Assembly (NCBI GenBank): GCA_965243125.1
Contig: OZ251529.1
Location: 2,578,797 to 2,642,796, forward strand
DNA from: Dehalococcoidia bacterium
GTDB lineage: Bacteria; Chloroflexota; Dehalococcoidia; Bin125
Reading direction: 5' to 3'
DNA length: 64,000 nucleotides
Under the pieces are notes generated by a model. The model ran no database searches and had not been told where the DNA came from. It was given only the letters and a program-made list of their open reading frames with translations. This document shows, one piece after another, positions 39,231 through 55,346 of this stretch. The position numbers and the translations under genes are program-made. Position 1 is the first letter of the stretch. Every line of letters starts with the position of its first letter.

Positions 39231-39394
39231 CGTCATTCCTGCGTAGGCAGGAATCCACGCGGGCCTCGTGATTGTGAATGCACTTCGGCGTTTCGACGGG
39301 CCGCCAGAAGCGGCCTTCGAGGGCCGTTGGGACCTCTGAAGCGCGAACGAGGGCGGTGGATCGCCTGGATTCCTGCCTACGCAGGAATGACGGA
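39231..39394 (+). mobile_element. MITE-like element, copy A (~164 bp), with hairpin-forming 27-bp terminal inverted repeats
   Basis: The left end is CCGTCATTCCTGCGTAGGCAGGAATCC and the right end is GGATTCCTGCCTACGCAGGAATGACGG. Each end contains the palindrome ATTCCTGC-GTAG-GCAGGAAT. The ~110-bp core is homologous, in inverted orientation, to copies B, C and D. Confidence 0.85.
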
Positions 39395-39483
39395 AGGGGG
39401 GCGTAGGGGTTGTTGGAGGGGGCGCAGGGGTGTTGGATGGGGGGTGGCAGGACTGATACGGGGGGCGCTAGACTTGCGGTGCG

Positions 39484-39774
39484 ATGCCCAAAGAACCGTG
39501 CGTCTACATTCTTGCCAGCAAGCGCAACGGGACGACCTACATCGGCGTTACGTCCGATTTGCCGCGCCGCGTCTGGATGCACAAAGAGGATCTGGTGGAG
39601 GGCTTCACGAAGCACTACGGGGTACACACGCTCGTCTGGTATGAACTGCACGAGACGATGATCGAGGCGATCACCCGCGAGAAGCAGCTCAAGCGCTGGA
39701 AGCGCGATTGGAAGATTCGTCTGATCAACGAGTCCAACCCGCAGTGGCGAGACCTGTACAACGAACTCGCCTAA
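39484..39774 (+). CDS. GIY-YIG nuclease family protein (small URI-domain, UPF0213/YhbQ-like)
   Basis: 96 aa. It has VYILASKRNGTTYIGVTSDL (GIY...YIG), R..H, and E..AI..EKQLKRW. It is visibly AT-richer than its flanks. Confidence 0.9.
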   Translation: MPKEPCVYILASKRNGTTYIGVTSDLPRRVWMHKEDLVEGFTKHYGVHTLVWYELHETMIEAITREKQLKRWKRDWKIRLINESNPQWRDLYNELA

Positions 39775-39839
39775 CCTTCGGCGCTCTCCCGCCCGCCAGT
39801 CCTACACCCCCGCCCGCCATCCCTCCGTCTCTCTTCCAT

Positions 39840-39989
39840 CACCCCTGCGCCCCCTGTCCCTCATCCCTGCGCCTCCTCCTCCGTCATCCCTGCGCCTCCT
39901 CCTCCGTCATCCCTGCGCCTCCTCCCCCGTCATCCCTGCGCCTCCTCCATCACCCCTGCGCCCTCCTCCGTCATTCCTGCCACCCCCCC
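39840..39989. repeat. Degenerate tandem array of family P half-sites (ccgtcatccctgcgcctcct x ~5)
   Basis: Units of cctcctccgtcatccctgcg repeat at a ~29-bp period from about 39860 to 39990, leading into MITE copy B. Confidence 0.8.
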
Positions 39990-40152
39990 CCGTCATTCCT
40001 GCGTAGGCAGGAATCCAGGCGACCCGCCGCCCTGGTTCGCGCCCCAGAGGTCCAACGGCGCTCGAACGCTGCTGCGGGAGGCCCGTCGAAACCCCGAAGC
40101 GCATCCACAACCGCGAGACCCGCGTGGATTCCTGCCTACGCAGGAATGACGG
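39990..40152 (-). mobile_element. MITE-like element, copy B (inverted relative to copy A)
   Basis: It has the same TIRs. The core ccaggcgacccgccgccctggttcgcgcc...gcgcatccacaaccgcgagacccgcgtgg is the reverse complement of the copy A core with scattered substitutions. Confidence 0.85.
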
Positions 40153-40177
40153 AAGAGGGGCGCAGGAATGGCAGAGG

Positions 40178-40325
40178 GGCAGGAATCCAGGCGATCCGCC
40201 GCCCTGGTTCGCGCCCCGGAGGTCCAACGGCCCTCCAACGCTGCTGCGGGAGGCCCCGTCGAAACCCCGAAGCGCATTCACAACCGCGAGACCCGCGTGG
40301 ATTCCTGCCTACGCAGGAATGACGG
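40178..40325 (-). mobile_element. MITE-like element, copy C (left TIR truncated)
   Basis: It starts with ggcaggaatcc only (half TIR). The core is near-identical to copy B and the right TIR is intact. An extra half-site follows at about 40335-40347. Confidence 0.8.
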
Positions 40326-40472
40326 AAGAGGGGCGCAGGAATGACGGAGGGGGGCAGGGACGGTGCCAGGGGCGCAGCCGGCGGGCGAGGGGCGGCGGCC
40401 CCGCTTTGGCGGGGCCGCCTTTGGTCGCCTCTTTGGTCGCCTCTTTGGCCGCTCTGGCCTAGCCGCTCTGGC

Positions 40473-43400
40473 CTAGCCGCCCAGCCAGAGGACCACGCCC
40501 GGGTCTACGTGGAAGTCCATCGAGCCGGGCACGACCTGGCCCTCGGAGACCGCGTAGCGCAGCCACTTGCCGTTCTGCCAGAGCAGAATCGCCGTGATCT
40601 GCTCATTGTCGATGTCGCCCAGAATGTCCGAGGCGTAGACCATCGCGTCGCCGATCCAGGTCGTGAAATCGTTCGGACGCGGGTTGGTCAGACCCTCCGC
40701 CGGGCGCTCCTCGCGCTCCATGTGGCCCACGCTGAGCAGCTTCACGTCGGTCGCCGGCGTCGCCGTCGCGCGCACCCAGGCGTTGCCCTGCCCGACCACC
40801 AGATAGCTGGCCGAAGCCTTGCCGTCGGTCGTCGCGTTGACCGTGCTCAGCTGCACCACAATCGCAGTGCGGCTGGTCGAGCCGTCCGCCCAGCGGACCG
40901 GCGTGCCGTCGGGCACCGGCGTGCCGTCGGCGTCGAGCACCGTGGCGATCACCGAGAACGTGCCGCCCCGCGCGGTCGAGCCTTCCACCTTGTCGAAGGC
41001 CAGCGTCGCCGCGCCGCCCGTGACCGTGAAGTTGCGCGTGAACGTCTTGCTCGCGGCGCTCAGCGTCAGCGCGTACTGCCCGGTCGCCAGCGGCGAGCTC
41101 GGGTCCGCGTTGACGTTGACCTCGAGCAGCAGTCTGCCCTCGCCGTCGCGCGCGAAGCCGTCCGCCGGGGCCGCGGCCGCCGAGCCGCTGTAGGGCTTCG
41201 GCCAGGCCACGCTGAAGTTCGAACTCGAGCGCGTCGCCTCGCTGTAGACCACCCGCCCTTCGGCGTTGCGGATCACCACCCGCCCGTTCGCCGCGTTCGG
41301 CACCTCCACCTTGTTGCCGCCCGCGTCGGCCGCCGTGACCGACAGCGTCATCAGGTCGCGGTTGTCCACATCCTCGTCGGCCACGTTCTCGTCGCCCGCG
41401 TCCGGCGTGTCCACGTTGAGCACGCTGGTGCGCGGCGCGCCCACCTCAATCGTCTCGGCCGGCCCGGCGAAGACCACGGTGACCGCCTCGGGTTCGACGA
41501 TCTCGCCGATCCGCGGCTGCACGCTGGCCCGCACTTCCGCCGTGCCCGGCGTGCCCGGATGCTCGATCGCGATCCGAATGTTGCCCGAGTTCGCCGCGGT
41601 CAGCGCCGAGACCGGCACCTGGCAGCTCAGCCCGCCGTCGCCCCCGCTGCAACCGCCGCCGATCGTGGTCGACAGCCGCCCGCGGTTGGCCGTGATCAGC
41701 ACCGAGGCGATGCTGTTCGCGCTCGCGCCGCCGCCGCCCGAGTTGGTCACCGACAGCTGCAGCGTCGTCCGGTCGCCGCGCTTCGCCAGCACCGAGGGGA
41801 ACGTCCGGTCGTCGTCCGAATTCGTCGGGTCGCCCGGATCCTCGGCCAGCCCGAACTCCACGTTGGCCACCTCCGTGACCGTGCCGATCGTCACCTCCAG
41901 CTCGTCGGTCAGCACCCGGCTGGGCGTGTCCGCGTCGTCGTCGCCGTCGTCCACCCGGAACGTGCCCGAGATGGTGAACTTGCCGTCGGGCGTGCCCTCG
42001 GGAATCACGATCTCCGTGTCGGGCAGCGCGATCACGCAGGTCCAGGTGGTCGCGTCGTCCAGCGTGCGGGCCGCGCAGCCCTGCGCGGACGACAGCTCCG
42101 CGGCGCTGTCCCGCACCGCCGTGCGTTCGGTGGGACCAGCGCCGTCGTTCAAGTCCACGCCATCCAGATCGAAGGACCAGGCGCGGCCCGTGCCGACGCC
42201 CTGGTAGAGCAGGATGTTTGCCGGCGCCGCGCCGCCCGGGAGGTAGGAGGAGTGCGGCGCTTCGGACTGGCCCACGATCAGCGTGTCGTCGTCGAGCGCG
42301 ATGCCGGCGCGCGCGCCGAACAGCGCGTTGGGCGTGTTGCGCGGCGCGTTGATCACCATCGTGGATGTGCTGGCGTCCGCCCAGCTGCTGCTGTTGTAGA
42401 GGTGCGCCGTGCCCGACTCGAACACGCTGTTCGCCCCGTCGCTGGTCCGCAGCTTGAAGACGCCGCCGGTCACCGCGATCGTGTTGCCGTCGTCGTTGAT
42501 CGCCACGCTGTTGCCGAAGCGGTCGTTGGCGTGCGAGGTCGCGCTGTTGGTCAGCACCGCGGTCGCGTGGTGATCGAGCAATTCCTGTCCAGCGGCCCAA
42601 GGGGTGCCGGGCTCCACCCAGACGACGGCGGCGCCGGCCCAAGGGTTGATCCGGTTATGCCGTGCGGCCTCAACGCACTGGCCCCGCACGAGGCGCGGGT
42701 AACCGCCGGCGCCCGCGACGACCGTGCTGCCGTCGTGGTCCAGCGCGACGCTCTGGCCCAGGTAGAGGCACTCGGCGCTGCCGATCGCGTGCGTCTCCAG
42801 GCCCACGGTCAGGCGCGACGCCCGCAGGATTCGCTGCGGCACGAGCGTGCTCGTGACTTTGGTCCAGCCGCCCGTCGGCTGCACGAACACGGAGACGGCG
42901 CCCAGGTTGCGCTTCGTCGGGTTGTTGAAGGGGAAATCGGCGAGCGGGTGGCCGATCGCGATCGTCGTTTCGTCGCCGGAGATCGCGATCCCGGTGCCTT
43001 CCCAATGCTGGTCGCCGGCGTACATGCCCGGGTTGAGCGGGCTGACATGCATCAGGTCCGCGATCGTCATGTCGATCCAGGTGTGCTTGTTGTTGGTCCC
43101 CCCCTGCGGGCGCCGGAAGACCCAGCCGGCCACGGTGTCCCAGCGGTCGGCGTAGGCGGTGCCGTCCTGGGGTTCGAGCAGGGCGGGCGCGCCGGAGATC
43201 GCGATGTATTGGCCGGAGTCGCTGATCGCGACGCCCGCGCCGAACTTGAGGATGCTGTGCAGCTGGCGGGCGTTGGCGTCGGCGGGGTTTGGGGGGCTGG
43301 GCTGGGGCACGAAGGCGGTCGGCGCGAGCCGCGCCGCCCGCTCCACGAGGTCTTCGGCGTCGGTCAGCTTGAACAGGTAGACGGCGCCCTGGCCGGGGTG

Positions 43401-44135
43401 GCTGGGCGCGCCCTCGGGGTTGCGCCCGGGCGCGTCGTTGCCGCGCGAGCAGCCCCAATACGAAATGCCCGCCGGGCATTCGTCCACGCCGTCCTGAGGG
43501 GCGCCGACCGCGATGATCAGATTCTCGGAATTGTTGCCGGCGCCGTTGACGGCCACGGAGGTGCCGAATTCGGCGTCGACATGGGCGTCGGCGCCGGCCG
43601 TAATCCGCTGCAGGAACTTGCCGTTGATGAAGACATCGACCGCGCCGGCGTTCCGCATCCCGTCGACGTTGGCTTTGGGGTAGCCGACCACCACGATGTC
43701 GCCGCCGTCGGCTGCGGAGCGGGCTTTGACGGCGACGGCCGCGCCGCCGAGCGCGGCGTTGTTGCCGGCGCGGGTGTAGGGCGGGATGTTGTTGACGTTT
43801 TGGCCGGCCAGCGTGTCGGCGTTGACAGTGAGCAGGGTGCGCCCGGTGCTCTCCCAGTCGCGCCCGCCGGAGAGCCGCAGCGAGCCGCCGAGCACGGTAA
43901 ACTCGCCCAGTTGGGCGTGCTCGTGGCTGAGCGTCGCGCGCACGCGCACACTGGTGCCGGGCGCGATAATGTTGTCGGAGTCCTCAACGAGGCTGAGCGT
44001 CAGCGCGAGGTCGCTGGGCGGCGGGGCGGCGGCGGCCGGCGCGAGGGCCGCGATCGCCGCAGCCAGCAGCATGGCGAGCGCCCCCAAAGCCAGCAGCGGG
44101 ATGCGGGAGCGCGCAAGAGTCGTCAACGCAGGCAT
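40473..44135 (-). CDS. Large secreted FG-GAP beta-propeller plus Ig-like repeat protein (adhesin-like) with the shared C-terminal module
   Basis: 1220 aa. Signal peptide MPALTTLARSRIPLLALGALAMLLAAAIAALAPAAA. It has about seven FG-GAP-like blades (VVVGYP..GAVDVFI, IIAVGAPQDG..GAVYLF, IAIGHP..GAVSVFV, VVAGAGG..GAAVVWV, and others), then Ig-like segments. The C-terminus is ILLWQNGKWLRYAVS..GSMDFHVDPGVVLWLGG. Confidence 0.85.
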   Translation of the reverse strand: MPALTTLARSRIPLLALGALAMLLAAAIAALAPAAAAPPPSDLALTLSLVEDSDNIIAPGTSVRVRATLSHEHAQLGEFTVLGGSLRLSGGRDWESTGRTLLTVNADTLAGQNVNNIPPYTRAGNNAALGGAAVAVKARSAADGGDIVVVGYPKANVDGMRNAGAVDVFINGKFLQRITAGADAHVDAEFGTSVAVNGAGNNSENLIIAVGAPQDGVDECPAGISYWGCSRGNDAPGRNPEGAPSHPGQGAVYLFKLTDAEDLVERAARLAPTAFVPQPSPPNPADANARQLHSILKFGAGVAISDSGQYIAISGAPALLEPQDGTAYADRWDTVAGWVFRRPQGGTNNKHTWIDMTIADLMHVSPLNPGMYAGDQHWEGTGIAISGDETTIAIGHPLADFPFNNPTKRNLGAVSVFVQPTGGWTKVTSTLVPQRILRASRLTVGLETHAIGSAECLYLGQSVALDHDGSTVVAGAGGYPRLVRGQCVEAARHNRINPWAGAAVVWVEPGTPWAAGQELLDHHATAVLTNSATSHANDRFGNSVAINDDGNTIAVTGGVFKLRTSDGANSVFESGTAHLYNSSSWADASTSTMVINAPRNTPNALFGARAGIALDDDTLIVGQSEAPHSSYLPGGAAPANILLYQGVGTGRAWSFDLDGVDLNDGAGPTERTAVRDSAAELSSAQGCAARTLDDATTWTCVIALPDTEIVIPEGTPDGKFTISGTFRVDDGDDDADTPSRVLTDELEVTIGTVTEVANVEFGLAEDPGDPTNSDDDRTFPSVLAKRGDRTTLQLSVTNSGGGGASANSIASVLITANRGRLSTTIGGGCSGGDGGLSCQVPVSALTAANSGNIRIAIEHPGTPGTAEVRASVQPRIGEIVEPEAVTVVFAGPAETIEVGAPRTSVLNVDTPDAGDENVADEDVDNRDLMTLSVTAADAGGNKVEVPNAANGRVVIRNAEGRVVYSEATRSSSNFSVAWPKPYSGSAAAAPADGFARDGEGRLLLEVNVNADPSSPLATGQYALTLSAASKTFTRNFTVTGGAATLAFDKVEGSTARGGTFSVIATVLDADGTPVPDGTPVRWADGSTSRTAIVVQLSTVNATTDGKASASYLVVGQGNAWVRATATPATDVKLLSVGHMEREERPAEGLTNPRPNDFTTWIGDAMVYASDILGDIDNEQITAILLWQNGKWLRYAVSEGQVVPGSMDFHVDPGVVLWLGG

Positions 44136-44627
44136 AGTGGTGAGGCTCCTGACACACGGGCTCGTTTCACGTCCTCATGGTAGTGCCCCCTACCCTACAG
44201 AAAACACCCCCTACGATTCTGTCCCCCCCCCCCCCCAGTTTCACAAAGGTTTTACGGGCCGCGCGATCCGCCCTCTCCCCCCATCCTGGGGGGAGACTGA
44301 GAGGGGGGTTCGCCGACGTCGCACGCAGAACCCCCCCGTAGCCCCCCCACAATGGGGGGGCGGTCAGAAATCCCCCCACGCAGGGGGGGCTGTCTGTCCG
44401 GAATCGCCCCCCTACGCAGGGGGGCTGTCTGCGTAAGCAGACTGGGGGGTCGGTCCGGCGCACCGAGCACAGCACCGCCGCCCCGACCCCCCCGCCGCGC
44501 AGCGCGGCGGCCCCCCTGCATAGGGGGGCGATTCGGAGGGGACGATTCCCGAGAGCCCCTATCTGGTCGGAGGTGGTAGGAAATGTTCCAATATGTCAAG
44601 GTTTGTCCAAAACAGTCAGGGTCGGCG

Positions 44628-44722
44628 GGACCCTCCGGCCTCTCCCCCCATCGTGGCGGATCCCCTCCGGCCTCTCCCCCCGTCGCGGGGGATCCCCTCC
44701 GGCCTCTCCCCCCGTCGCGGGG
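44628..44722. repeat. 32-bp tandem repeat array, 3 units (ggatcccctccggcctctcccccc[ag]tcgcgg[cg])
   Basis: Read directly. There are no spacers between units. Confidence 0.9.
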
Positions 44723-45049
44723 GGAGATTGAGAGGGGGGCTCCGGCCGCCGCGCACGCCCCGAACCCCCCCGTAGCCCCCCCACAATGGGGGGGCGGTCA
44801 GAAATCCCCCCACGCAGGGGGGCTGTCTGTCCGGAATCGCCCCCCATCGCAGGGGGGCTGTCTGCGCAAGCAGACTGGGGGGTCGGTCCGGCGCACCGAG
44901 CACAGCACGACCGCCGCGCCGACCCCCCCGCCGCGCGGCGCGGCGGCCCCCCTGCATAGGGGGGCGATTCCCGAGAGCTCCTATCTGGTCGGATGTGGTA
45001 GGAAATGCTCCAATATGTCAAGGTTTGTCCAAAACAGTCAGGGTCGGCA

Positions 45050-45271
45050 GGACCCTCCGGCCTCTCCCCCCATCGCGGCGGATCCCCTCCGGCCTCTCCC
45101 CCCGTCGCGGCGGATCCCCTCCGGCCTCTCCCCCCATCGCGGCGGATCCCCTCCGGCCTCTCCCCCCATCGCGGCGGATCCCCTCCGGCCTCTCCCCCCG
45201 TCGCGGGGGATCCCCTCCGGCCTCTCCCCCCGTCGCGGGGGATCCCCTCCGGCCTCTCCCCCCGTCGCGGG
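45050..45271. repeat. 32-bp tandem repeat array, 7 units (same unit as 44628-44722)
   Basis: Unit starts are at 45050, 45080, 45112, 45144, 45176, 45208 and 45240. The period is exactly 32 bp after the first unit. Confidence 0.92.
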
Positions 45272-45480
45272 GGGAGATTGAGAGGGGGGCTCCGGCCGCC
45301 GCACACGCCCCGAACCCCCCCGTAGCCCCCCCACGATGGGGGGCAGTCAGAAATCACCCCCCACGCAGGGGGCTCCGCTCCGAAATCGCCCCCCATCGCA
45401 GAGGGGCTGTCTGCGCAAGCAGACTGGGGGGTCGGTCCGGCGCACCGAGCACAGCACGACCGCCGCCCCGACCCCCCGCC

Positions 45481-45675
45481 TCAGCGGCGCGGCGGCGACA
45501 TCGTCGTCTGCCAGCGGCAGTTGTGGCACGGCGGAAACTCCGTCAGGCCGCTGATGCGGCCCAGGAAGCGGCCGCAGTTGGGGCAGGTGGCGCGGATGCT
45601 CGGCTGCTCGGGCTGACGTGCGGGCTGACGTGTGGGTTGACGTGTGGGCTGCTGGTCGGTCTGACGTGCGGGCAT
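45481..45675 (-). CDS. Possible small zinc-ribbon protein (64 aa) with an N-terminal (T/A)RQP repeat
   Basis: MPARQTDQQPTRQPTRQPARQPEQPSIRATCPNCGRFLGRISGLTEFPPCHNCRWQTTMSPPRR has CPxC...CHxC. The ATG at 45675 lies 2 nt after the terminase stop. The last codons and the stop lie in repeat-derived sequence. Coding status is uncertain. Confidence 0.35.
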   Translation of the reverse strand: MPARQTDQQPTRQPTRQPARQPEQPSIRATCPNCGRFLGRISGLTEFPPCHNCRWQTTMSPPRR

Positions 45676-45677
45676 AC

Positions 45678-47102
45678 TCAACTCCTTTGGCGGCGCGCCG
45701 GCATTGCGGCGCGGCCGATGCCGACTCGCGGCGGCGCAACAGATGCGCGCCGGCGCTCGTCGGCTGCTTCGTGCATGTAGCGATCCGCGTCGAGCAGATC
45801 GTCGTCCTCCTTGACCGGCTTGGCCGCGCCGCCCGCGCTCGGGTCGGGCGGCTCCCAGCGGTAGGCCGACATCCGCTCGGGGAAGATCGTCAGCTCGGGC
45901 AGGTAGTAGGAGCGGGGCGCGCCGCCCTCGCCGGCGGCGAGCCGGCGCTGTACCAGGTCGATCCCGGCCTGCACGCTGTGCGGACCGCCGACGGAGGGCG
46001 TGATCGAGAGCCCCTGGCGGGCGAGCCGGTTGATCCAGGCGCTCTGGCTGCGGTCGGCGCGCCAGTGAATGCGCCGCCCCCCAATACCGCCGGAACCGCC
46101 GGAACCGCCGGCGAAGCGCGCGGCGCAGCCCTGCATCCACGCCTCCAGCCGCGCGATCACGTCGTGCCCGCCGCTCTCGAACTCCGCCAGCCGAATCAGG
46201 ACATCCGCGCCGCAGGCCGCGCGGGCGTCGGTCAGCCCCGCCACGATCCCGGCCGTCTTGTGGTGATGCTCGGCCGGCCCGCCGAAATCGAGTCCGCCGA
46301 CGTAGCGCGCGAAAGGCGGCAGCGGCTCGTCCCAGCGGTGCCGCAGCCGGTCGAAGCGGGGGTAGACCAGCCCGAGAAAGGCGTCGAAGCGCCCCTCGAC
46401 GAAGCGCGTCACCCAGTCGTCGGAGAGCATCGCGCGCTGGAGCGCCTCGTAGTTGGCCGGCAGCCAGGGGTTGTCGCGCATCCGCGCGGCGACGAACTCC
46501 AGCCGCAGGCCGGCCTGCTCGAAGCGATCCAGCGGCAGCTCCCGGCGCACAAACCAGCGCTCGAACCAGCCCGGCCAGGGGTTGCTGGCGGCCGCGAACA
46601 GGCGCAGCGGCTGCGCGCGGTGGCGCAGCCGCGTGATCAGCATCCGCGCCGCATCCTCCGACACCTCGCCCGCCTCATCGATGAACACCGCGCCGTACTC
46701 CTGCGAGCCCAACCCGGTCCAATCGGTCAGATGCCGAAACTGGATGACCGAGCAGGGGCTGGATCCGGCGGCGCGGATCGCCAGCTGCTCGGGGCCGGAG
46801 CGGCGCCGCTCGGCGATCAGGTGGTCGGGGCAGCGGTCGAAAAATTCGCTCATCGTGGTGCTGCGCAGATCGGTGTAGCGGAGTCGGGCGATCAGGATGC
46901 GCGTCCCTGGGAAGGTCTGCGCCGTATCGAGCGCCAGCTCGACCAGCGCGCGCGTCTTGCCGCCGCCCATCGCCCCGCCGTAGCCCGCCAGCACGATCCC
47001 CTCCGGCAGCGGCGCGCGCGTCGTCTGCCAGAGCTCCCGCTGGCGCGCGGTCGGAACAAAGCCGAAAGCATCGCCCCCCAGGTCAAGCGTCGGTGCAGCC
47101 AT
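45678..47102 (-). CDS. Phage terminase large subunit (TerL, Terminase_6-like), isolated
   Basis: Start set at ATG 47102 (MAAPTLDLGGDAFGF). It has Walker A GYGGAMGGGKT, Walker B VFIDEAGE, and nuclease-domain Asp contexts VGGLDFGG and DDLLDADRYM. Confidence 0.85.
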   Translation of the reverse strand: MAAPTLDLGGDAFGFVPTARQRELWQTTRAPLPEGIVLAGYGGAMGGGKTRALVELALDTAQTFPGTRILIARLRYTDLRSTTMSEFFDRCPDHLIAERRRSGPEQLAIRAAGSSPCSVIQFRHLTDWTGLGSQEYGAVFIDEAGEVSEDAARMLITRLRHRAQPLRLFAAASNPWPGWFERWFVRRELPLDRFEQAGLRLEFVAARMRDNPWLPANYEALQRAMLSDDWVTRFVEGRFDAFLGLVYPRFDRLRHRWDEPLPPFARYVGGLDFGGPAEHHHKTAGIVAGLTDARAACGADVLIRLAEFESGGHDVIARLEAWMQGCAARFAGGSGGSGGIGGRRIHWRADRSQSAWINRLARQGLSITPSVGGPHSVQAGIDLVQRRLAAGEGGAPRSYYLPELTIFPERMSAYRWEPPDPSAGGAAKPVKEDDDLLDADRYMHEAADERRRASVAPPRVGIGRAAMPARRQRS

Positions 47103-47123
47103 ACGGAAGAATACAGAACGTAA

Positions 47124-47147
47124 GTTCGATTTGCAAGCAAATCGAAC
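47124..47147. promoter_or_regulatory. Perfect 11-2-11 palindrome GTTCGATTTGC-AA-GCAAATCGAAC, 22 nt upstream of the terminase start
   Basis: Read directly. It is the only AT-rich perfect palindrome in this region. It is a candidate operator or 5'-UTR hairpin. Confidence 0.35.
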
Positions 47148-47148
47148 G

Positions 47149-47252
47149 GGGCGCTCCGGAATCGCCCCCCTATGCAGGGGGGCTGTCTGCGTAAGCAGAC
47201 TGGGGGGTCGGTCCGGCGCACCGAGCACAAGACAGACTCCGCGCCGACCCCC
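47149..47252. repeat. Family 2 mosaic repeat
   Basis: Reads ctccggaatcgcccccctatgcaggggggctgtctgcgtaagcagactggggggtcggtccggcgcaccgagcac. Confidence 0.85.
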
Positions 47253-47273
47253 TCCGTCATTCCTGCGCCCCCT

Positions 47274-47435
47274 CCGTCATTCCTGCGTAGGCAGGAACCC
47301 AGGCGAACCGCCCGCGTTCGTTCGCGACTCGGACTCTCAACGGCCCTCCAACGCTGCTTTGGGAGGCCGTCAGAACACGGAGGCTCGATCACAACCACGA
47401 GGTCGCCTGGATTCCTGCCTACGCAGGAATGACGG
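47274..47435 (-). mobile_element. MITE-like element, copy D
   Basis: It has both TIRs (ccgtcattcctgcgtaggcaggaa(c)cc ... ggattcctgcctacgcaggaatgacgg). The core is related to B and C but more diverged. One extra half-site precedes it at 47255. Confidence 0.82.
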
Positions 47436-47500
47436 AAGGAGAGCGCCGAGGCTTTTGACGAATTGCGCAAAGGATCATCGTGCAGGAGAGGTTTCTCAAT

Positions 47501-47655
47501 GCCCCCCCATCGTGGAAGCGCCCATCTCAATACCCCCCCATCCTGGGGGGGCTACGGGGGGGTCTGCGGGCAGCCGGCGGAGCCCCCCTCTCAATCTCCC
47601 CCCGCGACGGGGGGAGAGGCCGGAGTGGAATCCCCCGCGACGGGGGGAGAATTCG
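47501..47655. repeat. Family 2 mosaic repeat overlapping the 3' end of the beta-helix protein gene
   Basis: Reads ccccccatcgtgg, cccccccatcctgggggggctacgggggg, cccctctcaatctccccccgcgacggggggagaggccgg. Confidence 0.85.
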
Positions 47656-50080
47656 GCCCCTGCGCCCACACGGCGTCGCGGGTGGCGCGCAGGCGCAGCA
47701 CGGGCGCGCCCCAGGGCGGCGGCTGCCACGCGCCGGCGGCTTCGGGCCAGATCACCCGCCAGCGCTGTTCGTCGCGATCCCACTGCTCGACGATGCTGAG
47801 CAGCCCCGGCTGCGCCGCCTCGAGCCGCGCCAGGGCGTCGGACGCCTGCGTCCACGGACCGTTCCAGCTGACCACGTTGAAGCCGCGGCGCAGTTCAATC
47901 ACGGCGGGCGCGCCCTCGTCTGCGTCAACGGCGCTCTCCGTCGAGAAATACGTATACGCCGGGCCGGGCGCGAGCTGCAGCAGCAGCGCGTCGCCGCCGC
48001 CCACCGTGCGCAGCGTGTTCAGATCACCCGGTGTGAGCGGCGACCAGCCGCGCCAGCCCTCGTCCGCGCTCCAGCGCCAGGCCGCGCGCAGCTCGCCGCG
48101 CAGCGGCGCGAGCGCCTCGCCGACCGGGCGCGCCGCGCCCTCCACCGCCGCCCAGTGCAGCTCGCTCTCGCCGGCGCGCGCGGGAATCGTCTGCCGCGCG
48201 GGCGCGGAGAACGGCGCGGAAAACTCCGAGGTCGCGCCGCCCCGCGCGATGCCCACCGCGCGAATCTCGCCCTCGGCGAGCACCAGCGTGACCGCCTCGA
48301 ACGCGCCGTCGCCCCCCACCTGCGCGCGGGCCAGCGCGCCCGGGCGATCCAGCCCCACGACGTAGATTTCGACTCGCGTACCCGGCTCGCCGCGCCCGCG
48401 AATCGTGCTGCGCAGCTGGTTGTTGGGAATCGCCTCCACCGCGTAGCTGAGCAGCGTCGGCACGGCTGGCGCGTCGGCCTGATCGGCGAGGTCGATGTCC
48501 AGCCCGCTGTTGGCGATGAAGATGTTGCGCGTGATCAGGTTGTCGCGGGCGTTCGCGCCGCCGACCAGCACCGCCGCACCGGCGACGCCGCCGATTCTGT
48601 TCTCGCGGATCGTCGCCCGTCGCGCGCCCTCGCCCAGCTCGACGCCGACGCCGGTCTCTTCCGCCGATGCGAACGCCGTCTCGACGAACCGCGCGCCGAT
48701 CCGGTTGTGCGAAACCGCCGCGTCCTCCAGCTCCGCGAGCAGGAGCGCGACGCCCACGCCGCGAATCGCGTTGCCCAGCCCGCGGTCGCCGCCGATCCTC
48801 ACGTCCGCGGCCTCCCGCGCCTCGATCCCGACCGCTCCCGCCCCGCCGGACGCAACGACATTGCGCTGGAGACTGATCCGCGAGGTATCCGCGCCGCCGA
48901 TTACGATCCCGCGCTCGCCGGCCAGCACCTGATTGCCGATCACCCGCACCTCCGACGCGCCGGCGATGATCGAGACGCCCTCTTCGAGGTTGGGCGCCGG
49001 CCGAGCGTCCGCCAGGTCGTCGGAGTCGGGCGCAGGAACGAGCCCGATCCAGTTGTCCTGCAGCCGCACCTCCCGCGCGCCCTGCTCCACCGCGACGCCG
49101 ACGCGGTTGGCCGCGATGATGTTGCGCTCGGACGCGCCGACCGTGACCCGCGCCGCGCCGGGACCGAAAAAGAGGCCGACATCGTTGCCCGCCGGCGCGC
49201 CGTCCGCGGTCACCCCGATCCGGTTGCCGTCGACCGCGCTCGCGGCGCGGGTCTCGCGGAACTCGACGCCGGCCACGCGGCTGGCGCAGATGATGTTGCC
49301 GCGCAGCTCGGCCTGGGCTGAATCGACGACCAGCACGCCGTCGTCGTTGGCCAGCGGCCGGCCGTCGGCGTTGAGCCCAATCGTGTTGCCGATCACGCGC
49401 GCGCCGACCACGCCGCCGCCGCCGATCACCACGCCGTGCCCGCTGCGCTCGGGCGCGCTGTTGCCGGCGATGCGGTTGCCGCAGCCCGCGCACTCGCCGC
49501 CGATCCGCGCCCCCGCCGCGCCGCCCAGCACGGCGACGCCGCTTAGACGATTCGGCGCGGCCGCGCGCCCGTCGGCGCTCATCCCCAGCCAGTTGGACTC
49601 GACGACCGCGCCGCGCGCCGCCGCCCCGATCACGCCGATCCCGTAGCGCTGAAAGCCGCCGACGCCGAGCCCGCGCACGGTCGCGCTGGGGCCCGCGATC
49701 AGAATGCCCGCGGCGTCGCCCGCCCGGCTGCCGTCGAGATAGATCGGCGGCGGGCGATCGGCGCTCCAGCCGGCCTGCGTCGTCGCGTCGAGCGTGATCC
49801 CCGCGCCGCGCAGCGCGGGCAACTGGATGTTCGGCGCGATCGTCGCAGGCCCCGCCAGGGCGAAGCGGATCAGGTCGCCCCCGTCCGACTCGTTGGCGGC
49901 GTTGATCGCGGCGCGCAGACTGCAAATCTGGGCGCAGCCCTCGGGACCGGGATCCTCGGCGGTGGTCACGATCCAAACATGCGCGGGCGCGTCCTGCGCG
50001 AGCGCCTGGCCGAGCGCGAGCGCGCCGAGCGCAGCGCAGCCCAGGGCGCAGACCAGCAGCGCCGCCGCGAGCCGAATCAG
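47591..50080 (-). CDS. Secreted right-handed parallel beta-helix (NosD/CASH-like) repeat protein with the shared C-terminal module; probable CTG start
   Basis: It has recurrent G N x I x x N xx GV motifs (VIGNTIGLN, LRGNIICASRVAGVEF, IAANRVGVAV, VIGNQVLAGERGIVI, and others). The track ORF starts at GTG 49969, but the in-frame upstream codons encode LIRLAAALLVCALGCAALGALALGQALA|QD, a signal peptide. CTG 50080 is preceded by GGGAG with a 7-nt spacer. Confidence 0.8.
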   Translation of the reverse strand: MIRLAAALLVCALGCAALGALALGQALAQDAPAHVWIVTTAEDPGPEGCAQICSLRAAINAANESDGGDLIRFALAGPATIAPNIQLPALRGAGITLDATTQAGWSADRPPPIYLDGSRAGDAAGILIAGPSATVRGLGVGGFQRYGIGVIGAAARGAVVESNWLGMSADGRAAAPNRLSGVAVLGGAAGARIGGECAGCGNRIAGNSAPERSGHGVVIGGGGVVGARVIGNTIGLNADGRPLANDDGVLVVDSAQAELRGNIICASRVAGVEFRETRAASAVDGNRIGVTADGAPAGNDVGLFFGPGAARVTVGASERNIIAANRVGVAVEQGAREVRLQDNWIGLVPAPDSDDLADARPAPNLEEGVSIIAGASEVRVIGNQVLAGERGIVIGGADTSRISLQRNVVASGGAGAVGIEAREAADVRIGGDRGLGNAIRGVGVALLLAELEDAAVSHNRIGARFVETAFASAEETGVGVELGEGARRATIRENRIGGVAGAAVLVGGANARDNLITRNIFIANSGLDIDLADQADAPAVPTLLSYAVEAIPNNQLRSTIRGRGEPGTRVEIYVVGLDRPGALARAQVGGDGAFEAVTLVLAEGEIRAVGIARGGATSEFSAPFSAPARQTIPARAGESELHWAAVEGAARPVGEALAPLRGELRAAWRWSADEGWRGWSPLTPGDLNTLRTVGGGDALLLQLAPGPAYTYFSTESAVDADEGAPAVIELRRGFNVVSWNGPWTQASDALARLEAAQPGLLSIVEQWDRDEQRWRVIWPEAAGAWQPPPWGAPVLRLRATRDAVWAQGPNSPPVAGDSTPASPPVAGGD

Positions 50081-51708
50081 CGCGTCGCTCCCGGCAAGCG
50101 CGCGGCGGCGTCCATGCGGATGTGCAGCCGGTCGCCGTTGGCCACCTGGAACGCTTCCTCAACCGGCGCGTCCCGCTGTGTGGTGTAGACCTGCCAGCCT
50201 GTTCCTTCGGGATGCTGCCGCCAGACGGTCACATTGAGATGGCCGATCGGGGCGATCGCGTCGGCGATCGATTTGTCCGCGCCGACCCAGGTGACGACGT
50301 TCATCCCTTTCGCCAGCGCCAGCCCCGAGCCTGCCAGATCGGCGAGCAGGCCGGACGCGCCCACTTCTTGCGGGTTCTCGATCAACCAGGCCTGGAGCAG
50401 CGGCGCGCCGCCCGCCGCCCCGGCGGCGCGCTCGATCCGCAGGCGGCTGGTCGCCACGCCGCGCCGCACGATCGAGTTCTCCGGTGTCAATTCCGCCTCG
50501 CCTGCTTCGAGCACCACCCGCCAGCGCACGGTGTAGCCGGAGGCCGAGAGGCGGCCCGTGGCATCGACCACCTCGGCGCGCAGAATGTACTCACGCGCCT
50601 CCGTGCCGGACCGGTCGGAGCTTTCGAGCATGTCCACCAGCGCCGCTGTGACGTACATCGTTTCCGGCGCGCCCACCACGGTCAGCTCGATGATGTCGCT
50701 CAGCCCGCTTCCCTCCGCGTCGGCCCGCAGCCAATAGTCGCCCGAGCGCGCCGCGTCCGTGGTCGCCTGCACCAGCACCCCGCCGGCCGCGTCGGTGATC
50801 AACTCGTCGAGCTCGCTGTCGGCGCTCAGCCGAATGCCGGAATCGTCCTGCGCCGCAAACGACACGCGCTGACCGGGCACGGCGCGGCCGCCCGCGTCGA
50901 GCAGCCGCGCGAGCACGATCGCGGCGGCGGTCTCCGAGCCGCGCTCCATCACCGGCGTCAGCGCCCAGAGACGCAGGCTGACCGGCTCGCCGTGGAACGC
51001 GAGCGCAAGCTCTGCCGCCGCGTCCACGCTGACCGCCCGCAGCGTTGCGGCGCCGGGGGCGGCCGCGCTGACCGTCGCGCTCACGCGCCCGCGTTCGGAG
51101 CTGCGCAGCGCCAGCAGCGATCCGCTTGCGCCGTCAGCCGCGCGCAGCACCGGATCGCCGTCCGCGCTCGTCGCCTCGAGCCGCAGCGGCGCGCCCGGCA
51201 CCGGCTGGCCGAGCCGATCGCGCACCTCGATCTGCACGACATGCGAGCGCGAGGCATCCAGCGGGCGCTCGGGCGTGGGGCGCAGAATGGCGATCTCGGC
51301 CGGCGCGCCGATGAACGCGACAGTTACAGCGTCGACCATCAACCCGGCCCGCGCGGTGACCACCGCCAGGCCCGGGCGGCCGTCGCCAACCAGCGTGACC
51401 GCCGCGACGAGGTCGCCGCCGCCGGAAGGCGAAGGCCGCACAATCACCCGCGAAGGTCCGGAAGCAGCGCCGAACGCGCCCAGATCGGAAGTGATCGTGA
51501 TCGTCGTGTCGGCGCCCGCCGCGTCCGCGGCCAGGCGAATCGTCACCCGCGCGCTGCCGCCGTCGGCCAGCACCGTGTCGTTGTCCACCGCAATTCGCAG
51601 CTGTTCGCCCTGCGCCGTCGCGGCGCTCAGCGCGAGTACGAGCAACGCGGCGCAGAACGCCGCCAGGCCAATTGCACCAACTGCGCGCCGGATCATTCGA
51701 GCCGCCAT
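50077..51708 (-). CDS. Secreted protein with bacterial Ig-like (Big/invasin-type) repeats and the shared C-terminal module
   Basis: Start set at ATG 51708 (MAARMIRRAVGAIGLAAFCAALLVLALSAATAQG, signal peptide). It has repeated ~90-aa beta-rich segments (..ATLRAVSVDAAAELALAFHG.., ..GLAVVTARAGLMVDAVTVAFIG..). Confidence 0.78.
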   Translation of the reverse strand: MAARMIRRAVGAIGLAAFCAALLVLALSAATAQGEQLRIAVDNDTVLADGGSARVTIRLAADAAGADTTITITSDLGAFGAASGPSRVIVRPSPSGGGDLVAAVTLVGDGRPGLAVVTARAGLMVDAVTVAFIGAPAEIAILRPTPERPLDASRSHVVQIEVRDRLGQPVPGAPLRLEATSADGDPVLRAADGASGSLLALRSSERGRVSATVSAAAPGAATLRAVSVDAAAELALAFHGEPVSLRLWALTPVMERGSETAAAIVLARLLDAGGRAVPGQRVSFAAQDDSGIRLSADSELDELITDAAGGVLVQATTDAARSGDYWLRADAEGSGLSDIIELTVVGAPETMYVTAALVDMLESSDRSGTEAREYILRAEVVDATGRLSASGYTVRWRVVLEAGEAELTPENSIVRRGVATSRLRIERAAGAAGGAPLLQAWLIENPQEVGASGLLADLAGSGLALAKGMNVVTWVGADKSIADAIAPIGHLNVTVWRQHPEGTGWQVYTTQRDAPVEEAFQVANGDRLHIRMDAAARLPGATR

Positions 51709-51822
51709 GCCGCACTCCGCCCGTAGAGTCAGTGTATGGCGGTGATCCATTCGCTTCGGCGCGTAACAACGTTGTGTTTACGCCGCGTTCACGCTGTATG
51801 TAAAAGGCTCGCCCGACCCTGC

Positions 51823-51942
51823 GACGGCCGACCCCCCAGTCCGCTGACGCGGACAGCCCCCCTGCGTAGGGGGGCGATTCCGGATCTGAATCCTCCCCCT
51901 ATGCAGGGGGAGGCGCCGCGTAGCGGCGGAGGGGGTCGGCCT
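51823..51942. repeat. Family 2 mosaic repeat (partial)
   Basis: Reads ggccgaccccccagtccgctgacgcggacagcccccctgcgtaggggggcgattccgg...ccccctatgcaggggg. Confidence 0.85.
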
Positions 51943-51960
51943 CGGCGCAAGGCACGCGAA

Positions 51961-51984
51961 GGGCGGGGCCGAACGGCCCCGCCC
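51961..51984 (-). terminator. Putative intrinsic terminator hairpin downstream of the acidic-repeat gene
   Basis: Perfect 10-bp GC stem GGGCGGGGCC-gaac-GGCCCCGCCC, 60 nt past the stop at 52044. Only two U residues follow on the transcribed strand, so the call is tentative. Confidence 0.35.
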
Positions 51985-52043
51985 TCCGGAGTGCTCGGAG
52001 CGGGTTTCGCGCCAGAAGCGCGAAGCCGGACGTCGGCTGGCGT

Positions 52044-52766
52044 CTAGCTCTGCGAGTGCGAGCGACGGCGGATGGCCGCGCCGCCGACCAGGGCGATCAG
52101 CGCCAGCGCGCCGGCGATGCCGCCGTAGACGGCGGTCGAAACGCCGCGGCTGCCGTCGGCCAAGCCGCCGGTGCCTTGCACGCCGTAGCCGGCGTCGCCA
52201 ACGGTGTCGCCATCGCCAGCCATGCCCTTGTCGTCGTCCATCATGGTGTCGCTGCCGTCATCTTCACCCATCAGAGTGTCGCTGCCGTCTTCACCCATCA
52301 TGGTGTCGTCGCCATCTTCACCCATCAGAGTGTCGTCGCCGTCTTCACCCATCAGAGTGTCGTCGCCGTCTTCACCCATCATGGTGTCGTCGCCGCTGCC
52401 TTCGGGCATCGCGCTGGTCGCGGCCAGCGTCAGCTGGGTGCTCTTGCCCTGCGGCGCGTCGTAGGTCTCGCCGGCCGGCTGCCCGTCGACCGTGAAGGTC
52501 ACGCCCGTCGTGTCGCCGGGAACCTGAATGGACCAGCCGTCCGCGTTGCCGTAGGTCGTGGAGCCGACCTGCTCGCCGTTGGCCCAGGCCACGATCAGCT
52601 TGCCGGCGGCGTCCTCGCCGTCCAGCGTCACGGTCGGGCTGCCGCCGACTTCGTCCCAGTTCCAGAAGGTGTGCGGCGGCGAGTTCTGCGCCAGCGCAGC
52701 GCCCGCGATCAGGAGCGCCAACAGCGCCGCTCCCGCCATCGCCACCAGTCGAGGCATCTTCAACAT
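52044..52766 (-). CDS. Secreted protein with an acidic Met-rich 9-aa tandem repeat and a C-terminal TM anchor plus basic tail
   Basis: Signal peptide MLKMPRLVAMAGAALLALLIAGAALAQ, then a beta-rich ~90-aa domain, then (GDDT[LM]MGED)x6. The C-terminus is GTGGLADGSRGVSTAVYGGIAGALALIALVGGAAIRRRSHSQS. Confidence 0.8.
   Translation of the reverse strand: MLKMPRLVAMAGAALLALLIAGAALAQNSPPHTFWNWDEVGGSPTVTLDGEDAAGKLIVAWANGEQVGSTTYGNADGWSIQVPGDTTGVTFTVDGQPAGETYDAPQGKSTQLTLAATSAMPEGSGDDTMMGEDGDDTLMGEDGDDTLMGEDGDDTMMGEDGSDTLMGEDDGSDTMMDDDKGMAGDGDTVGDAGYGVQGTGGLADGSRGVSTAVYGGIAGALALIALVGGAAIRRRSHSQS
52239..52400. repeat. 27-bp in-frame tandem repeat (about 6 units) inside the CDS
   Basis: atca(g/t)(a/g)gtgtcgtcgcc(g/a)tcttcaccc is repeated and encodes GEDGDDT(L/M)M. 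Confidence 0.9.
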
Positions 52767-52849
52767 GCGGTCCGTCCCTTCGCTTTCTGTCCCTGCACGC
52801 AGCCTAGCATCTACGCTCGGCGCGTTTCAGGCAACTCCTGTTTGCGCCT

Positions 52850-54718
52850 CTAGCCGCTCAGCCAGAGGATATCGCCCAAGGTGATCGTGAAGTCCACGGC
52901 GCCCGGCAACGGCCGCCCCGAACTCTCCCCGTACGCCCCGTAGCGTTTGGTCGTGCTGTTGAACTTGAAGATCGCGTCCACCCCGCGGTCGGCGATGCCC
53001 GCGTCGAACAGGTCGCTCGCTCGCGTGGTGGCGGAGGAGATCCAGGACACATAACCGTTGATCTCCAGCGTGGCCAGCCCGCTCAGCCCAACCGACGCAT
53101 CGGTCGTGCTCGCCCCGCCGCCGCCCGGCGTCGCCGGAATGTTGATGATCTGAGTGCCCGTGACGCCGTCGGCGGTCGCGCGCACCAGCGCCCGCCCGCT
53201 CGACACCACCAGGTATTGCACCGAGGCGCGGCCGGCGAACGTCTTCGGCGACTCGCCGCCCGCCGCGACCAGCTGCGCGCCACCCGCGCCGACCGTCCCA
53301 ATCGAGTCCGTCCCGAACCTCACCGTCGTGCCGTCCGCCACCGACTGCCCGTCGGCGTCGGTCACGTCGGCCGTCAGCACGATCTGCGCGGCGCCCTGGC
53401 TCCAGCTCGGCTCCGAGGCGGAAACGGTCACCGCGGCGGCCTTGCCGGCCACCCGGAACGTCTGCTCGCCCGACGCGCCCCGCCCGCTCGCGCGCAGGGT
53501 GTACTCGCCGGTCGCCAACGGGCTGCCGCTCGCAGCCAGCGTCTCCAACTCAACGAAGATCCGGCCGGCGCTGTCGGGCTCCAGCTGCTCGCGGGCGATC
53601 GCGCTCGACGGCACCGTGCGGCCGTCCGGGTTGCGAATGCTCAGCGCGAGCGTGCTCGGCGTCTCTGCGGCGTTGCCGCTGGCGTCAACGGCGCTGACCT
53701 CGAAGCGAATCGTGCCGCGCTCGCCGGCGTCTTCCTCGTTCAGCAGCGCGCCCGAGGCCGCGCCGATCGTCAGTTTGTCGGCGGCGCCGGAAAAGGTCAG
53801 CCGCGGCGACTTCGCCTCGTGCGACTCGCCGTCGGCGGTCGTCACCACCCGCACCGTCACCTCCGCGCTGGCCGGCGCGCTGCTGGTCGCCTTGATCACG
53901 ATCGACTCTGCGCCCCGCCCGCCCAACTGCGAGACGGACCGGGAAGTCCACTGGCAGATCGATCCGTCGCAGCTCGCGCCGCCGGCGGTCGTCTCCAGCG
54001 TCAACGGCGGCCCGCTGACCAGAATCGTCGAAATCGCGCCCGGATCCGCAGCGGCGTTGTTCTCGTTCAGAATCTTGAGCACCAGCTCAATGCCGTCCGA
54101 GCCGCCCGCCGCGCGGGTGCTCGGCTCCCCTTCCGCCAACTCCAGCGTCACGCTCTCCACCTCATTGATGTCCGCCACGGTCAGCTTCGCCGTCGCCGCC
54201 GGCAGAGCCTCGCCCGTCAGCAGATCGCCGGTCACATCGGTGATCGCCAGGCTGTACTCCGTGTTCGTCACGGAGAGCGTGTACTCGCCCTCCCTGACGC
54301 CGAACAGGTTGGCGTCGTACGCGCCCACCAGGCAATCCCAGACCAGCGGGTCCTCGGCGTCGGCGAGCGCGCACTCGGGCATGTCGGCGGCCGGAGTGCC
54401 CTCGCGATTCGTGACTTCGACGCTGCCGCTGGACCGCACCCTCAAGCCGGTCGCCTCCACGTTCGTGAAGTCGTCGTCCTCCACCTCATCGCTCAGGTGG
54501 ATCCGCAGCACCACATCGACATCGAGCTCGCGAAGGCCGCCCGGATCGGGCGGCACGGTGGCGTCGGAGTCGTCGATCACGATCCGCATTTCCACCTCGG
54601 TGACTTCAATGGAGTCCTGCGCGTAGGCGGCGGAGGACGCAGCTGCCGCGGCCAGCGCCGCCGCGACGACCGCGAGCAGCCCCAGACCGAGCATCCGCGA
54701 GGAAAGCGCCTGACTCAT
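52850..54718 (-). CDS. Secreted Ig-like repeat protein with the shared C-terminal module
   Basis: Signal peptide MSQALSSRMLGLGLLAVVAAALAAAAASSAAYAQ, then serial beta-rich ~100-aa segments. The C-terminus is IFKFNSTTKRYGAYG..GAVDFTITLGDILWLSG. Confidence 0.8.
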   Translation of the reverse strand: MSQALSSRMLGLGLLAVVAAALAAAAASSAAYAQDSIEVTEVEMRIVIDDSDATVPPDPGGLRELDVDVVLRIHLSDEVEDDDFTNVEATGLRVRSSGSVEVTNREGTPAADMPECALADAEDPLVWDCLVGAYDANLFGVREGEYTLSVTNTEYSLAITDVTGDLLTGEALPAATAKLTVADINEVESVTLELAEGEPSTRAAGGSDGIELVLKILNENNAAADPGAISTILVSGPPLTLETTAGGASCDGSICQWTSRSVSQLGGRGAESIVIKATSSAPASAEVTVRVVTTADGESHEAKSPRLTFSGAADKLTIGAASGALLNEEDAGERGTIRFEVSAVDASGNAAETPSTLALSIRNPDGRTVPSSAIAREQLEPDSAGRIFVELETLAASGSPLATGEYTLRASGRGASGEQTFRVAGKAAAVTVSASEPSWSQGAAQIVLTADVTDADGQSVADGTTVRFGTDSIGTVGAGGAQLVAAGGESPKTFAGRASVQYLVVSSGRALVRATADGVTGTQIINIPATPGGGGASTTDASVGLSGLATLEINGYVSWISSATTRASDLFDAGIADRGVDAIFKFNSTTKRYGAYGESSGRPLPGAVDFTITLGDILWLSG

Positions 54719-54880
54719 CGCCGCTGCTCATCTCCGCGCCGACCGTCGATGCCACCGCGATGGGGTGATCCGTCGGCTCTCATACAGCCTACGCAGCCCT
54801 ACCGCCCCCACGCCCACCCTGCTTTACGTCTGCGCAACACTGCCGCGCCGCAAACGGCAATGGGCACCCAAAGCGCGCCC

Positions 54881-55262
54881 CTCCGAAATCGCCCCCTACG
54901 CAGAGGACCTCGCTCCGGAAATCGCCCCCCTACGCAGAGGACCCCGCTCCGGGAATCGCCCCCCTACGCAGAGGACCCCGCTCCGGGAATCGCCGCCCCC
55001 CTATGCAGGGGACCTCGCTCCGGGAATCGCCCCCCTATGCAGGGGCCTCGCTCCGGAAATCGCCCCCTATGCAGGGGGGCTGTCCGCGCAGCGGACTGGG
55101 GGGTCGGTCCGGCGCACCGAGCACAGCACACCGCCCCCCATCCTGGGGAAGAAAAGTGCCCCCCCATCCTGGGGGGGCTACGGGGGGGTGCCTGCGAGCG
55201 CGCGCCTCACCCCCCTCTCAATCTCCCCCCGCGACGGGGGGAGAGGTCGGAAAGGGACTCCG
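54881..55262. repeat. Family 2 repeat block, including about 6 tandem ~37-bp units of the 'aatcgcccccctacgcagagg' module
   Basis: ctccgg(a/g)aatcgcccccctacgcagaggacc(c/t)cg is repeated from 54881 to about 55080. The gaccgacccccc and cccctctcaatctcccccc modules follow. Confidence 0.88.
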
Positions 55263-55272
55263 CACTCCCCTC

Positions 55273-55302
55273 CCGTCATTCCTGCCTGCGCAGGAATGAC
55301 GG
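55273..55302. repeat. Solo family P palindrome: CCGTCATTCCTGC-CTGC-GCAGGAATGACGG
   Basis: Perfect 13-bp arms. It equals the outer halves of the two MITE TIRs joined with no core. Two extra aatgacgg half-sites follow. Confidence 0.85.
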
Positions 55303-55346
55303 ATGGGGCAAATGACGGATGGGGCGCCGGAACAACGGCCCGCCCC

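Follow-up and report, generated by a model that had tools for sequence, protein, structure and literature searches.

A conserved C-terminal module of large exported proteins and the small protein with a predicted membrane anchor encoded beside it: a candidate surface-retention system

Why do large exported proteins with differing bodies end in the same short tail? The question is raised by a stretch of 64,000 nucleotides (nt) of bacterial DNA, referred to here as the window, in which a first-pass annotation had noted five open reading frames (ORFs) for secreted repeat proteins sharing a C-terminal module. All five are present where it placed them, and we refer to them as A (4937-7315, + strand; 792 residues), B (40473-44135, − strand; 1220 residues), C (52850-54718, −; 622 residues), D (50077-51708 or 51750, −; about 543-557 residues) and E (47591-50080 as first read, −; 829 residues), real genes in the window, whose G+C content is about 70%, being told by third-position G+C. 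The N-terminus of each reads as a Sec signal peptide, with basic residues followed by a hydrophobic stretch and an A-x-A-type site. The bodies that precede the tail, here termed passengers, are matched by Pfam in the types already proposed for them: FG-GAP in A (FG-GAP_2, E 4.8e-9) and in B, which also has an immunoglobulin (Ig)-like part; FlgD_ig/Ig-like in C (FlgD_ig, E 7e-9); Big_1/Invasin_D3 in D (Big_1, E 1.7e-11); and a right-handed beta-helix of the Beta_helix/NosD type in E (Beta_helix, E 4.6e-11). The module proves to be a domain family in its own right, found almost always at the C-terminus of its carriers and, in one subgroup, encoded just upstream of a small protein with a predicted membrane anchor; tentatively, we suggest that it retains its carriers at the cell surface.

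The tails of A, B and C are clearly homologous, and these three proteins are the canonical members. By BLASTP the A and B tails are 39% identical over 92 residues (E 5e-17), with E 4e-4 for A and C and E 3e-36 for B and C, and in Smith–Waterman comparisons of the three pairs the observed score was reached by none of 2000 shuffles. When the window, translated in six frames, is scanned with a hidden Markov model (HMM) of these three tails, just A, B and C stand out (117-135 bits; A 116.8), followed by noise, while against an HMM of 163 family sequences the modules of A (7097..7312, +; residues 722-791), B (40476..40697, −; residues 1148-1219) and C (52853..53080, −; residues 547-621) score 90.6, 96.7 and 77.3 bits, respectively. 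The module of D (50107..50313, −) reaches 17.5 bits against the same family HMM, a score equalled by none of 3000 shuffles (maximum 10.7); D is the top non-member in the six-frame window (E 0.004), the runner-up standing at 6.5 bits, and hhalign aligns it in register with the family profile over 59 columns (P 0.011). Its place as a divergent family member is significant.

Protein E carries two tandem D-like copies, supported by Smith–Waterman comparison with D: an upstream copy, E1 (47954..48178, −), and a C-terminal copy, E2 (47651..47896, −), the latter followed by a 22-residue extension. Neither is significant against the family on its own (E2 P about 0.03, E1 nothing, hhalign P 0.13). D compared with E2 gives P of about 0.001, and the score of D against E1 was reached by none of 2000 shuffles; a sub-profile of D, E1 and E2 aligns in register with the family profile over 58 columns (hhalign P 2.7e-4) and, run on full-length family members, matches exactly their C-terminal module. 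E is thus a probable member, joined to the family only through D and this sub-profile, and a canonical module on a beta-helix/NosD passenger does occur elsewhere in the family. We accept all five proteins, with a certainty that falls from A-C to D and then to E. The idea of a common tail, for which a failure under formal alignment statistics had been named as a possible undoing, therefore holds for A-C (E down to 3e-36) and for D (0/3000 shuffles) and reaches E only by way of D; the module is about 70-75 residues long rather than the roughly 65 first estimated.

To see how widely the module occurs, and where in a protein, 1.84 billion representative proteins were searched exhaustively with the HMM of A, B and C, a check much like one that the first-pass annotation had proposed. 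The search returned 378 cluster representatives at E<=1e-3, of which 128 lie at E<=1e-10. The best 150 matches, pooled with the cluster members of B and C, give 161 occurrences; in 127 of these the module runs to the very last residue, and in 152 it ends no more than two residues from the C-terminus. Four proteins have extra internal or tandem copies, which fit a binding domain better than a signal that needs a free C-terminus. Carriers range from 54 to 1955 residues (median 715), and a hydrophobic N-terminus resembling a signal is present in 110 of 146. Glutamate, proline and alanine are over-represented, and aromatics under-represented, in the 25 residues that lead up to the module, a composition that indicates a linker. 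HMM match, C-terminal position, such a linker and a Sec-signal protein are found together in A, B and C (77-97 bits) and in D (17.5 bits).

The family consensus reads ..F.tW.G....AS.LL..L.g...I.lW.g..W.RY...DG...PGS.DF.I..Gd.LWL.. and includes three near-invariant features, namely an alanine in the helix, a W..Y pair in the hairpin and PGS.DF (PGSxDF) in the loop that follows. There is no transmembrane (TM)-like segment in the module, the best 18-residue window containing a median of 12 residues from the set A, I, L, V, F, M, W and G, and the commonest endings are ...YISN, ...WLSG and ...WLGG. Among 56 members whose passengers were compared with Pfam, Big_1 (9), FG-GAP (4) and fn3 (2) were found, along with PKD, Beta_helix/NosD and similar domains, the majority having no Pfam domain at all. 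To call these passengers otherwise unrelated, as had been done, is too strong: B and C are homologous by BLASTP across about 530 residues, beyond the tail, A and B have FG-GAP repeats in common, and 139 of 146 passengers in the family are linked by homology.

Other searches gave less. A word-indexed search with a 68-tail profile found 8 short fragments only, all of them gene calls that are truncated or frameshifted and not domains standing alone. A profile combining A, B, C, D, E1 and E2 was too diluted and found nothing among 5.8 billion proteins, a scan of metagenome contigs with D gave no match, an exact look-up of C among encoding contigs gave no record, and a genome search with the family consensus found only one locus, L001 (related loci are numbered with the prefix L). 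Proteins of 80 residues that might pass for stand-alone modules were ruled out as such, the rest of the gene lying in an overlapping upstream ORF. In long-read contigs of sponge metagenome-assembled genomes (MAGs), frameshifts split some module and partner genes (L002 7246-8243; L003 7045-8243 and 8251-8924), which gives rise to spurious 80-residue 'stand-alone module' gene calls in databases.

What kind of structure does the tail form? The tail of B, modelled by AlphaFold2 with 68 diverse family tails as input, gives a mean predicted local distance difference test score (pLDDT) of 97.4 and a predicted template modelling score of 0.86, with elements in the order short helix, strand, helix, beta-hairpin, loop with PGSxDF and terminal strand. 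The module is thus confidently predicted to be a compact, independently folding alpha/beta domain, and no relative of it is recognisable. Foldseek, which is less sensitive for such small domains, finds nothing better in PDB than E 0.35 with a template modelling score of at most 0.37, and PDB and BFVD together give best E values of 0.29-0.35 with scores below 0.4; a profile search of PDB sequences returns noise only. No family of Pfam (2025 release) matches the family consensus or the tail of B, even with the threshold relaxed to E<=10, neither Pfam nor NCBIfam (June 2026) matches any of the five tails, and a literature search gave no description of the module, the partner protein discussed below or the cassette that they form. 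All three are absent from the curated families, the solved structures and the literature searched, and the match to a well-characterised domain that had been named as grounds for abandoning the idea did not appear in Pfam, NCBIfam, PDB sequences or Foldseek.

The same searches uphold the view that the module is none of the familiar terminal signals and wall-binding domains. For dockerin (PF00404) there is no profile match, and the predicted order is strand-helix-hairpin-strand. The C-terminal domain (CTD) model of the type IX secretion system (T9SS; TIGR04183/Por_Secre_tail) reaches only 12.8 bits (cut-off 23), at residues 941-973 of B, which lie in the Ig-like region and not in the tail; the model of the module has helices, and a Foldseek search with it gives no CTD structure. 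LPXTG, PEP-CTERM, PGF-CTERM and GlyGly-CTERM signals were rejected, the module ending in ...LWLGG, ...LWLSG or ...LYISN with no TM stretch and no NCBIfam match, as were the S-layer homology (SLH) domain (PF00395), LysM, SH3b and CWB, to none of which do the tails have a Pfam match. A module reused at the end of many proteins had been taken for a sorting, anchoring or secretion signal. Anchoring remains plausible, with indirect support from the conserved downstream gene for a membrane-anchored protein, while a peptide-like sorting signal does not agree with a folded globular alpha/beta domain (pLDDT 97) that has neither a hydrophobic segment nor a basic tail. Nor does a sortase-like or protease gene, the suggested companion of such a signal, adjoin a module gene in any locus examined.

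What the module might attach to is suggested by the gene that follows C. This gene, which the first-pass annotation had not listed, encodes a small partner protein, S (52044..52766, −; 240 residues), 83 nt downstream of C, and S is homologous to small proteins of other module loci (E 1e-10). From its N-terminus S consists of a signal peptide, the motif SPPHTFWN directly after the cleavage site, a beta domain, acidic repeats, the motif GTGGLADGS, a TM helix and RRR. In the AlphaFold2 model these appear as a signal helix (residues 4-25), the beta domain (32-114), disorder (115-210) and the TM helix (211-233). The beta domain has eight strands (pLDDT 55-89), and its best Foldseek match is the Ig/transthyretin-like 4v4c_B (E 0.026); the disordered acidic nine-residue repeats match the RTX calcium-binding repeat model (HemolysinCabind, E 4.9e-13), and no NCBIfam sorting-signal model matches S. 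The S family has at least 422 members at E<=0.01, all of them unnamed and without Pfam domains, and PPHRFYG is invariant in 120 of its 120 top matches. Copies are numerous within single contigs, with 14 distinct 90% clusters on one of 3.6 Mb and 10 on another of 1.16 Mb.

The order of a module gene followed by a partner gene recurs well beyond the window, where C and S form the pair. It is seen three times in L002, in each of L003-L007, in L009, L010 and L011, and twice in L012, so that pairing occurs in every Ig-rich case (C-type or L002-type) with downstream DNA, that is in the window and 10 other loci. Seen from the partner side, in a sample of 4 proteins picked for partner homology only, each of the 5 partner genes has a module gene immediately upstream, and contigs reached through short database matches carry tandem arrays in which a module gene is followed, after 70-130 nt, by a gene for about 195-205 residues. 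In L010 a second, longer partner-like gene (10955-11677; 240 residues, weak Big_6) comes right after the regular partner gene, which indicates that partner paralogues can also be tandem.

Six such cassettes from several assemblies were compared for conservation. Identity between passengers is 29-39% in 14 of 15 pairs (66% between L010 and L011) and between modules 51-86%, as against 77-90% for the partner head and 86-98% for the partner anchor. The parts that we take to do the holding, which we refer to as foot (the module) and stalk (the partner), are constrained, while the exposed passenger diversifies.

The organism itself bears on how such proteins could be held. The window sequence occurs in sponge metagenome runs, and contigs of four runs have an even, DNA-like depth; an NCBI contig of 3.17 Mb is the recorded source of B and C. 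Of the relatives only L001 has a label, which assigns it to a Dehalococcoidia MAG of 70% G+C, and the related loci are rich in family-III coenzyme A (CoA)-transferases, MR_MLE enolases, enoyl-CoA hydratases, short-chain dehydrogenases and luciferase-like monooxygenases; paralogue expansion of this kind has been described for SAR202 (PMC6946804). The organism is probably a Dehalococcoidia/SAR202-type sponge symbiont, and it likely has no peptidoglycan, sponge SAR202 genomes having been reported without genes for peptidoglycan synthesis (PMC6306507). Where peptidoglycan is missing, a protein-based anchor would be needed.

The reading that we favour, though only tentatively, is that the module is a surface-retention foot of diversified adhesin-like proteins, docking non-covalently on a stalk protein. 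After Sec export the passenger would be held at the cell surface through binding of the foot to the small conserved stalk, which would consist of an Ig-like head with PPHxF(Y/W), an acidic spacer of the calcium-binding type and an anchor formed by the C-terminal motif, TM helix and arginines. The acidic segment would space the head from the membrane and may be stiffened by calcium ions. In the Ig-rich subgroup the stalk would be supplied by the gene directly downstream, the order in the window being C, S and then D and E, and the FG-GAP-type proteins A and B may use the same or another receptor in trans. More doubtful is the wider picture, in which peptidoglycan-less symbionts of the Dehalococcoidia/SAR202 type would possess an undescribed two-part display, the foot plugging into a calcium-binding stalk and tandem cassettes rapidly diversifying the passengers.

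Several observations weigh against docking on a stalk. The FG-GAP-type members A, B, L001, L015 and L016 have no adjacent partner gene, and the window has a single partner gene for five module proteins. Among the six cassettes no finer co-variation is seen between foot and stalk, the L010 module being 51-56% identical to the others and its partner 81-90%, and the high identity among partner paralogues could come partly from gene conversion. Adjacency of genes, moreover, speaks for a functional link only and not for binding.

The most serious competitor, which we consider unlikely, is that the module binds a glycan, an S-layer component or the sponge matrix, and that the small protein is an independent surface protein that happens to be co-expressed. 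PGSxDF, which looks exposed, and the W..Y pair are kept in all subtypes, including the A/B type without an adjacent partner, internal or tandem copies such as a few proteins have are frequent among binding modules, and the carriers resemble adhesins. One would not expect, however, that a ligand-binding head follows a flexible linker at the very end of nearly every carrier, nor that it stays conserved in a protein that otherwise diversifies, and the module has no similarity to the carbohydrate-binding modules in Pfam or PDB.

Less probable again is a folded export or sorting domain resembling the T9SS CTD, which a machine would recognise and then remove or couple to an anchor. Extreme C-terminal placement on Sec-signal cargo of varied architecture would suit it, as argued in the first-pass annotation, and the size is near that of T9SS CTDs. 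Yet TIGR04183 is unmatched in the tail, the helix-containing fold has no CTD counterpart, internal copies exist, and the neighbourhoods of module genes in 16 loci have no conserved gene for a processing enzyme or for secretion; an organism that probably has a single membrane would, in addition, need no second translocation step.

A self-association or lattice domain, building an S-layer-like coat with no specific receptor, or alternatively an intramolecular folding aid, seems similarly improbable. The organism is probably wall-less, and a large Ig-rich protein with a small TM stalk recalls two-component S-layers such as SlaA/SlaB, but many divergent paralogues per genome would be unusual for a lattice protein, neither the model nor the searches give any sign of oligomerisation, and similarity to phage-type C-terminal chaperone domains is lacking. 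That the tails resemble each other by chance or composition alone, to which the failure of E by itself to score against the family profile might lend some colour, is refuted for A-D and can be set aside in view of the 77-135 bits of A, B and C, the hundreds of database proteins in which the module is likewise terminal, the shuffle controls, the match of the D/E sub-profile and the model with pLDDT 97.

The genes around the module proteins complete the description of the window. Four of the five do lie in the 14-kb co-directional cluster first noted, which also contains a terminase-like gene, multi-copy repeats and the gene for S between C and D, and its surroundings hold genes for a thiolase, an enoyl-CoA hydratase, a Uma2-family protein and a Type ISP restriction enzyme. 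The terminase large-subunit-like gene (Terminase_3, E 2e-7; 45678-47228, −), between B and E, is solitary, with repeats on both sides and no further phage genes evident. Protein E has an irregular start: its signal-peptide-like stretch (region 50077-50161) contains no ATG, GTG or TTG, position 50080 is a CTG that overlaps the TGA stop of D (CTGA), and a protein begun at the first canonical start, GTG at 49969, would lack the signal peptide. Translation may begin at a rare CTG, the start codon may have mutated, or the gene may be decaying. Over D and E (47632-51834) the sequence of a related strain, from a different sponge metagenome, diverges by about 3%, and the only difference in length is an in-frame gap of 9 nt (at 51667), which is consistent with both genes being maintained as coding sequence.

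Short repeats of several families, 66-460 nt long and 74-94% identical within the window, fill the intergenic DNA that flanks all module genes (39012-40472, 44136-45677, 47229-47590, 51751-52043 and 54719-55346), with further sites at about 4600-4800, 7200, 14000-14900, 16400 and 31800-32000. Their depth in sponge metagenome assemblies rises to thousands, as against 16-30x for genes, and they look like highly multiplied elements of the repetitive extragenic palindromic (REP) or miniature inverted-repeat transposable element (MITE) kind. The last 22 codons of E run into one of them. Downstream of B, in a repeat region, is a small low-G+C ORF (39484-39774, +; G+C 0.54 at first and 0.39 at second codon positions), the N-terminus of which resembles a GIY-YIG nuclease. 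Two UvrD/PcrA-type helicase genes in tandem (17-2557 and 2567-4780, +) lie directly upstream of A. The Type ISP restriction-modification enzyme is a single chain of 1612 residues (58322-63160, −) with Mrr_cat_2, ResIII/helicase, ISP_coupler, N6_Mtase and Type_ISP_C domains, and its gene is adjoined by that of the Uma2-family endonuclease (57502-58359).

Sponge-associated Chloroflexota are abundant and uncultivated, and little is understood of the way in which their surface is constructed and decorated or in which the host recognises or tolerates them. The foot HMM, the stalk HMM and the confident model provide a handle for cataloguing the surface proteome of these symbionts, and the domain would fill a gap in Pfam and NCBIfam with a predicted fold that has no counterpart in PDB or BFVD. 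Invariant anchor parts set against hypervariable passengers in tandem arrays point to surface variation, and if the proposed display is real, diversification of the passengers may serve interaction with the host or evasion of phage or phagocytosis.

A close functional parallel, if docking is real, would be the cohesin–dockerin pair of cellulosomes, in which varied secreted proteins likewise carry a small C-terminal module of about 70 residues, the receptor is a beta-sandwich on a cell-anchored protein, and acidic repeats of the calcium type form part of the system. The module described here differs in having no match to dockerin in sequence or fold, being beta-rich with one main helix rather than a duplicated EF-hand-like helix pair; the calcium-type repeats are in the spacer of the partner and not in the module; the partner head is an Ig/transthyretin-like domain of about 80 residues as against the 140 of a cohesin; and binding of foot to stalk is here only proposed. 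T9SS CTDs are also folded domains of about 70-80 residues at the extreme C-terminus of varied, Sec-exported cargo, but no tail matches their model, the predicted secondary structure is different with no structural match, and the T9SS is an outer-membrane system of Bacteroidota, whereas the present loci are Dehalococcoidia-like. Tripartite sorting signals find a likeness in the partner and not in the module, the partner ending in GTG(S)GGLADGS, a TM helix and an arginine cluster. The partner nevertheless matches no NCBIfam model, the module has no hydrophobic segment or basic tail, and the loci show no gene for a sortase, exosortase or rhombosortase.

In its overall plan the cassette resembles SlaA/SlaB of the Sulfolobales, an archaeal two-component S-layer in which the stalk has beta-sandwich domains, a C-terminal TM helix and a coiled coil. 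In both, a large outer protein is encoded first and a smaller stalk protein next, the latter with a signal peptide, a beta-sandwich and a single C-terminal TM helix, and peptidoglycan is absent from the organism, in the present case probably. No homology was detected between the two systems, however; in place of a single lattice pair, a genome here has many divergent cassettes, and the stalk contains an acidic disordered repeat where the archaeal one has a coiled coil. Terminal modules that hold varied cargo on cells are thus already known, and what would be new, in a lineage whose envelope is essentially unstudied, is this kind of module together with its partner.

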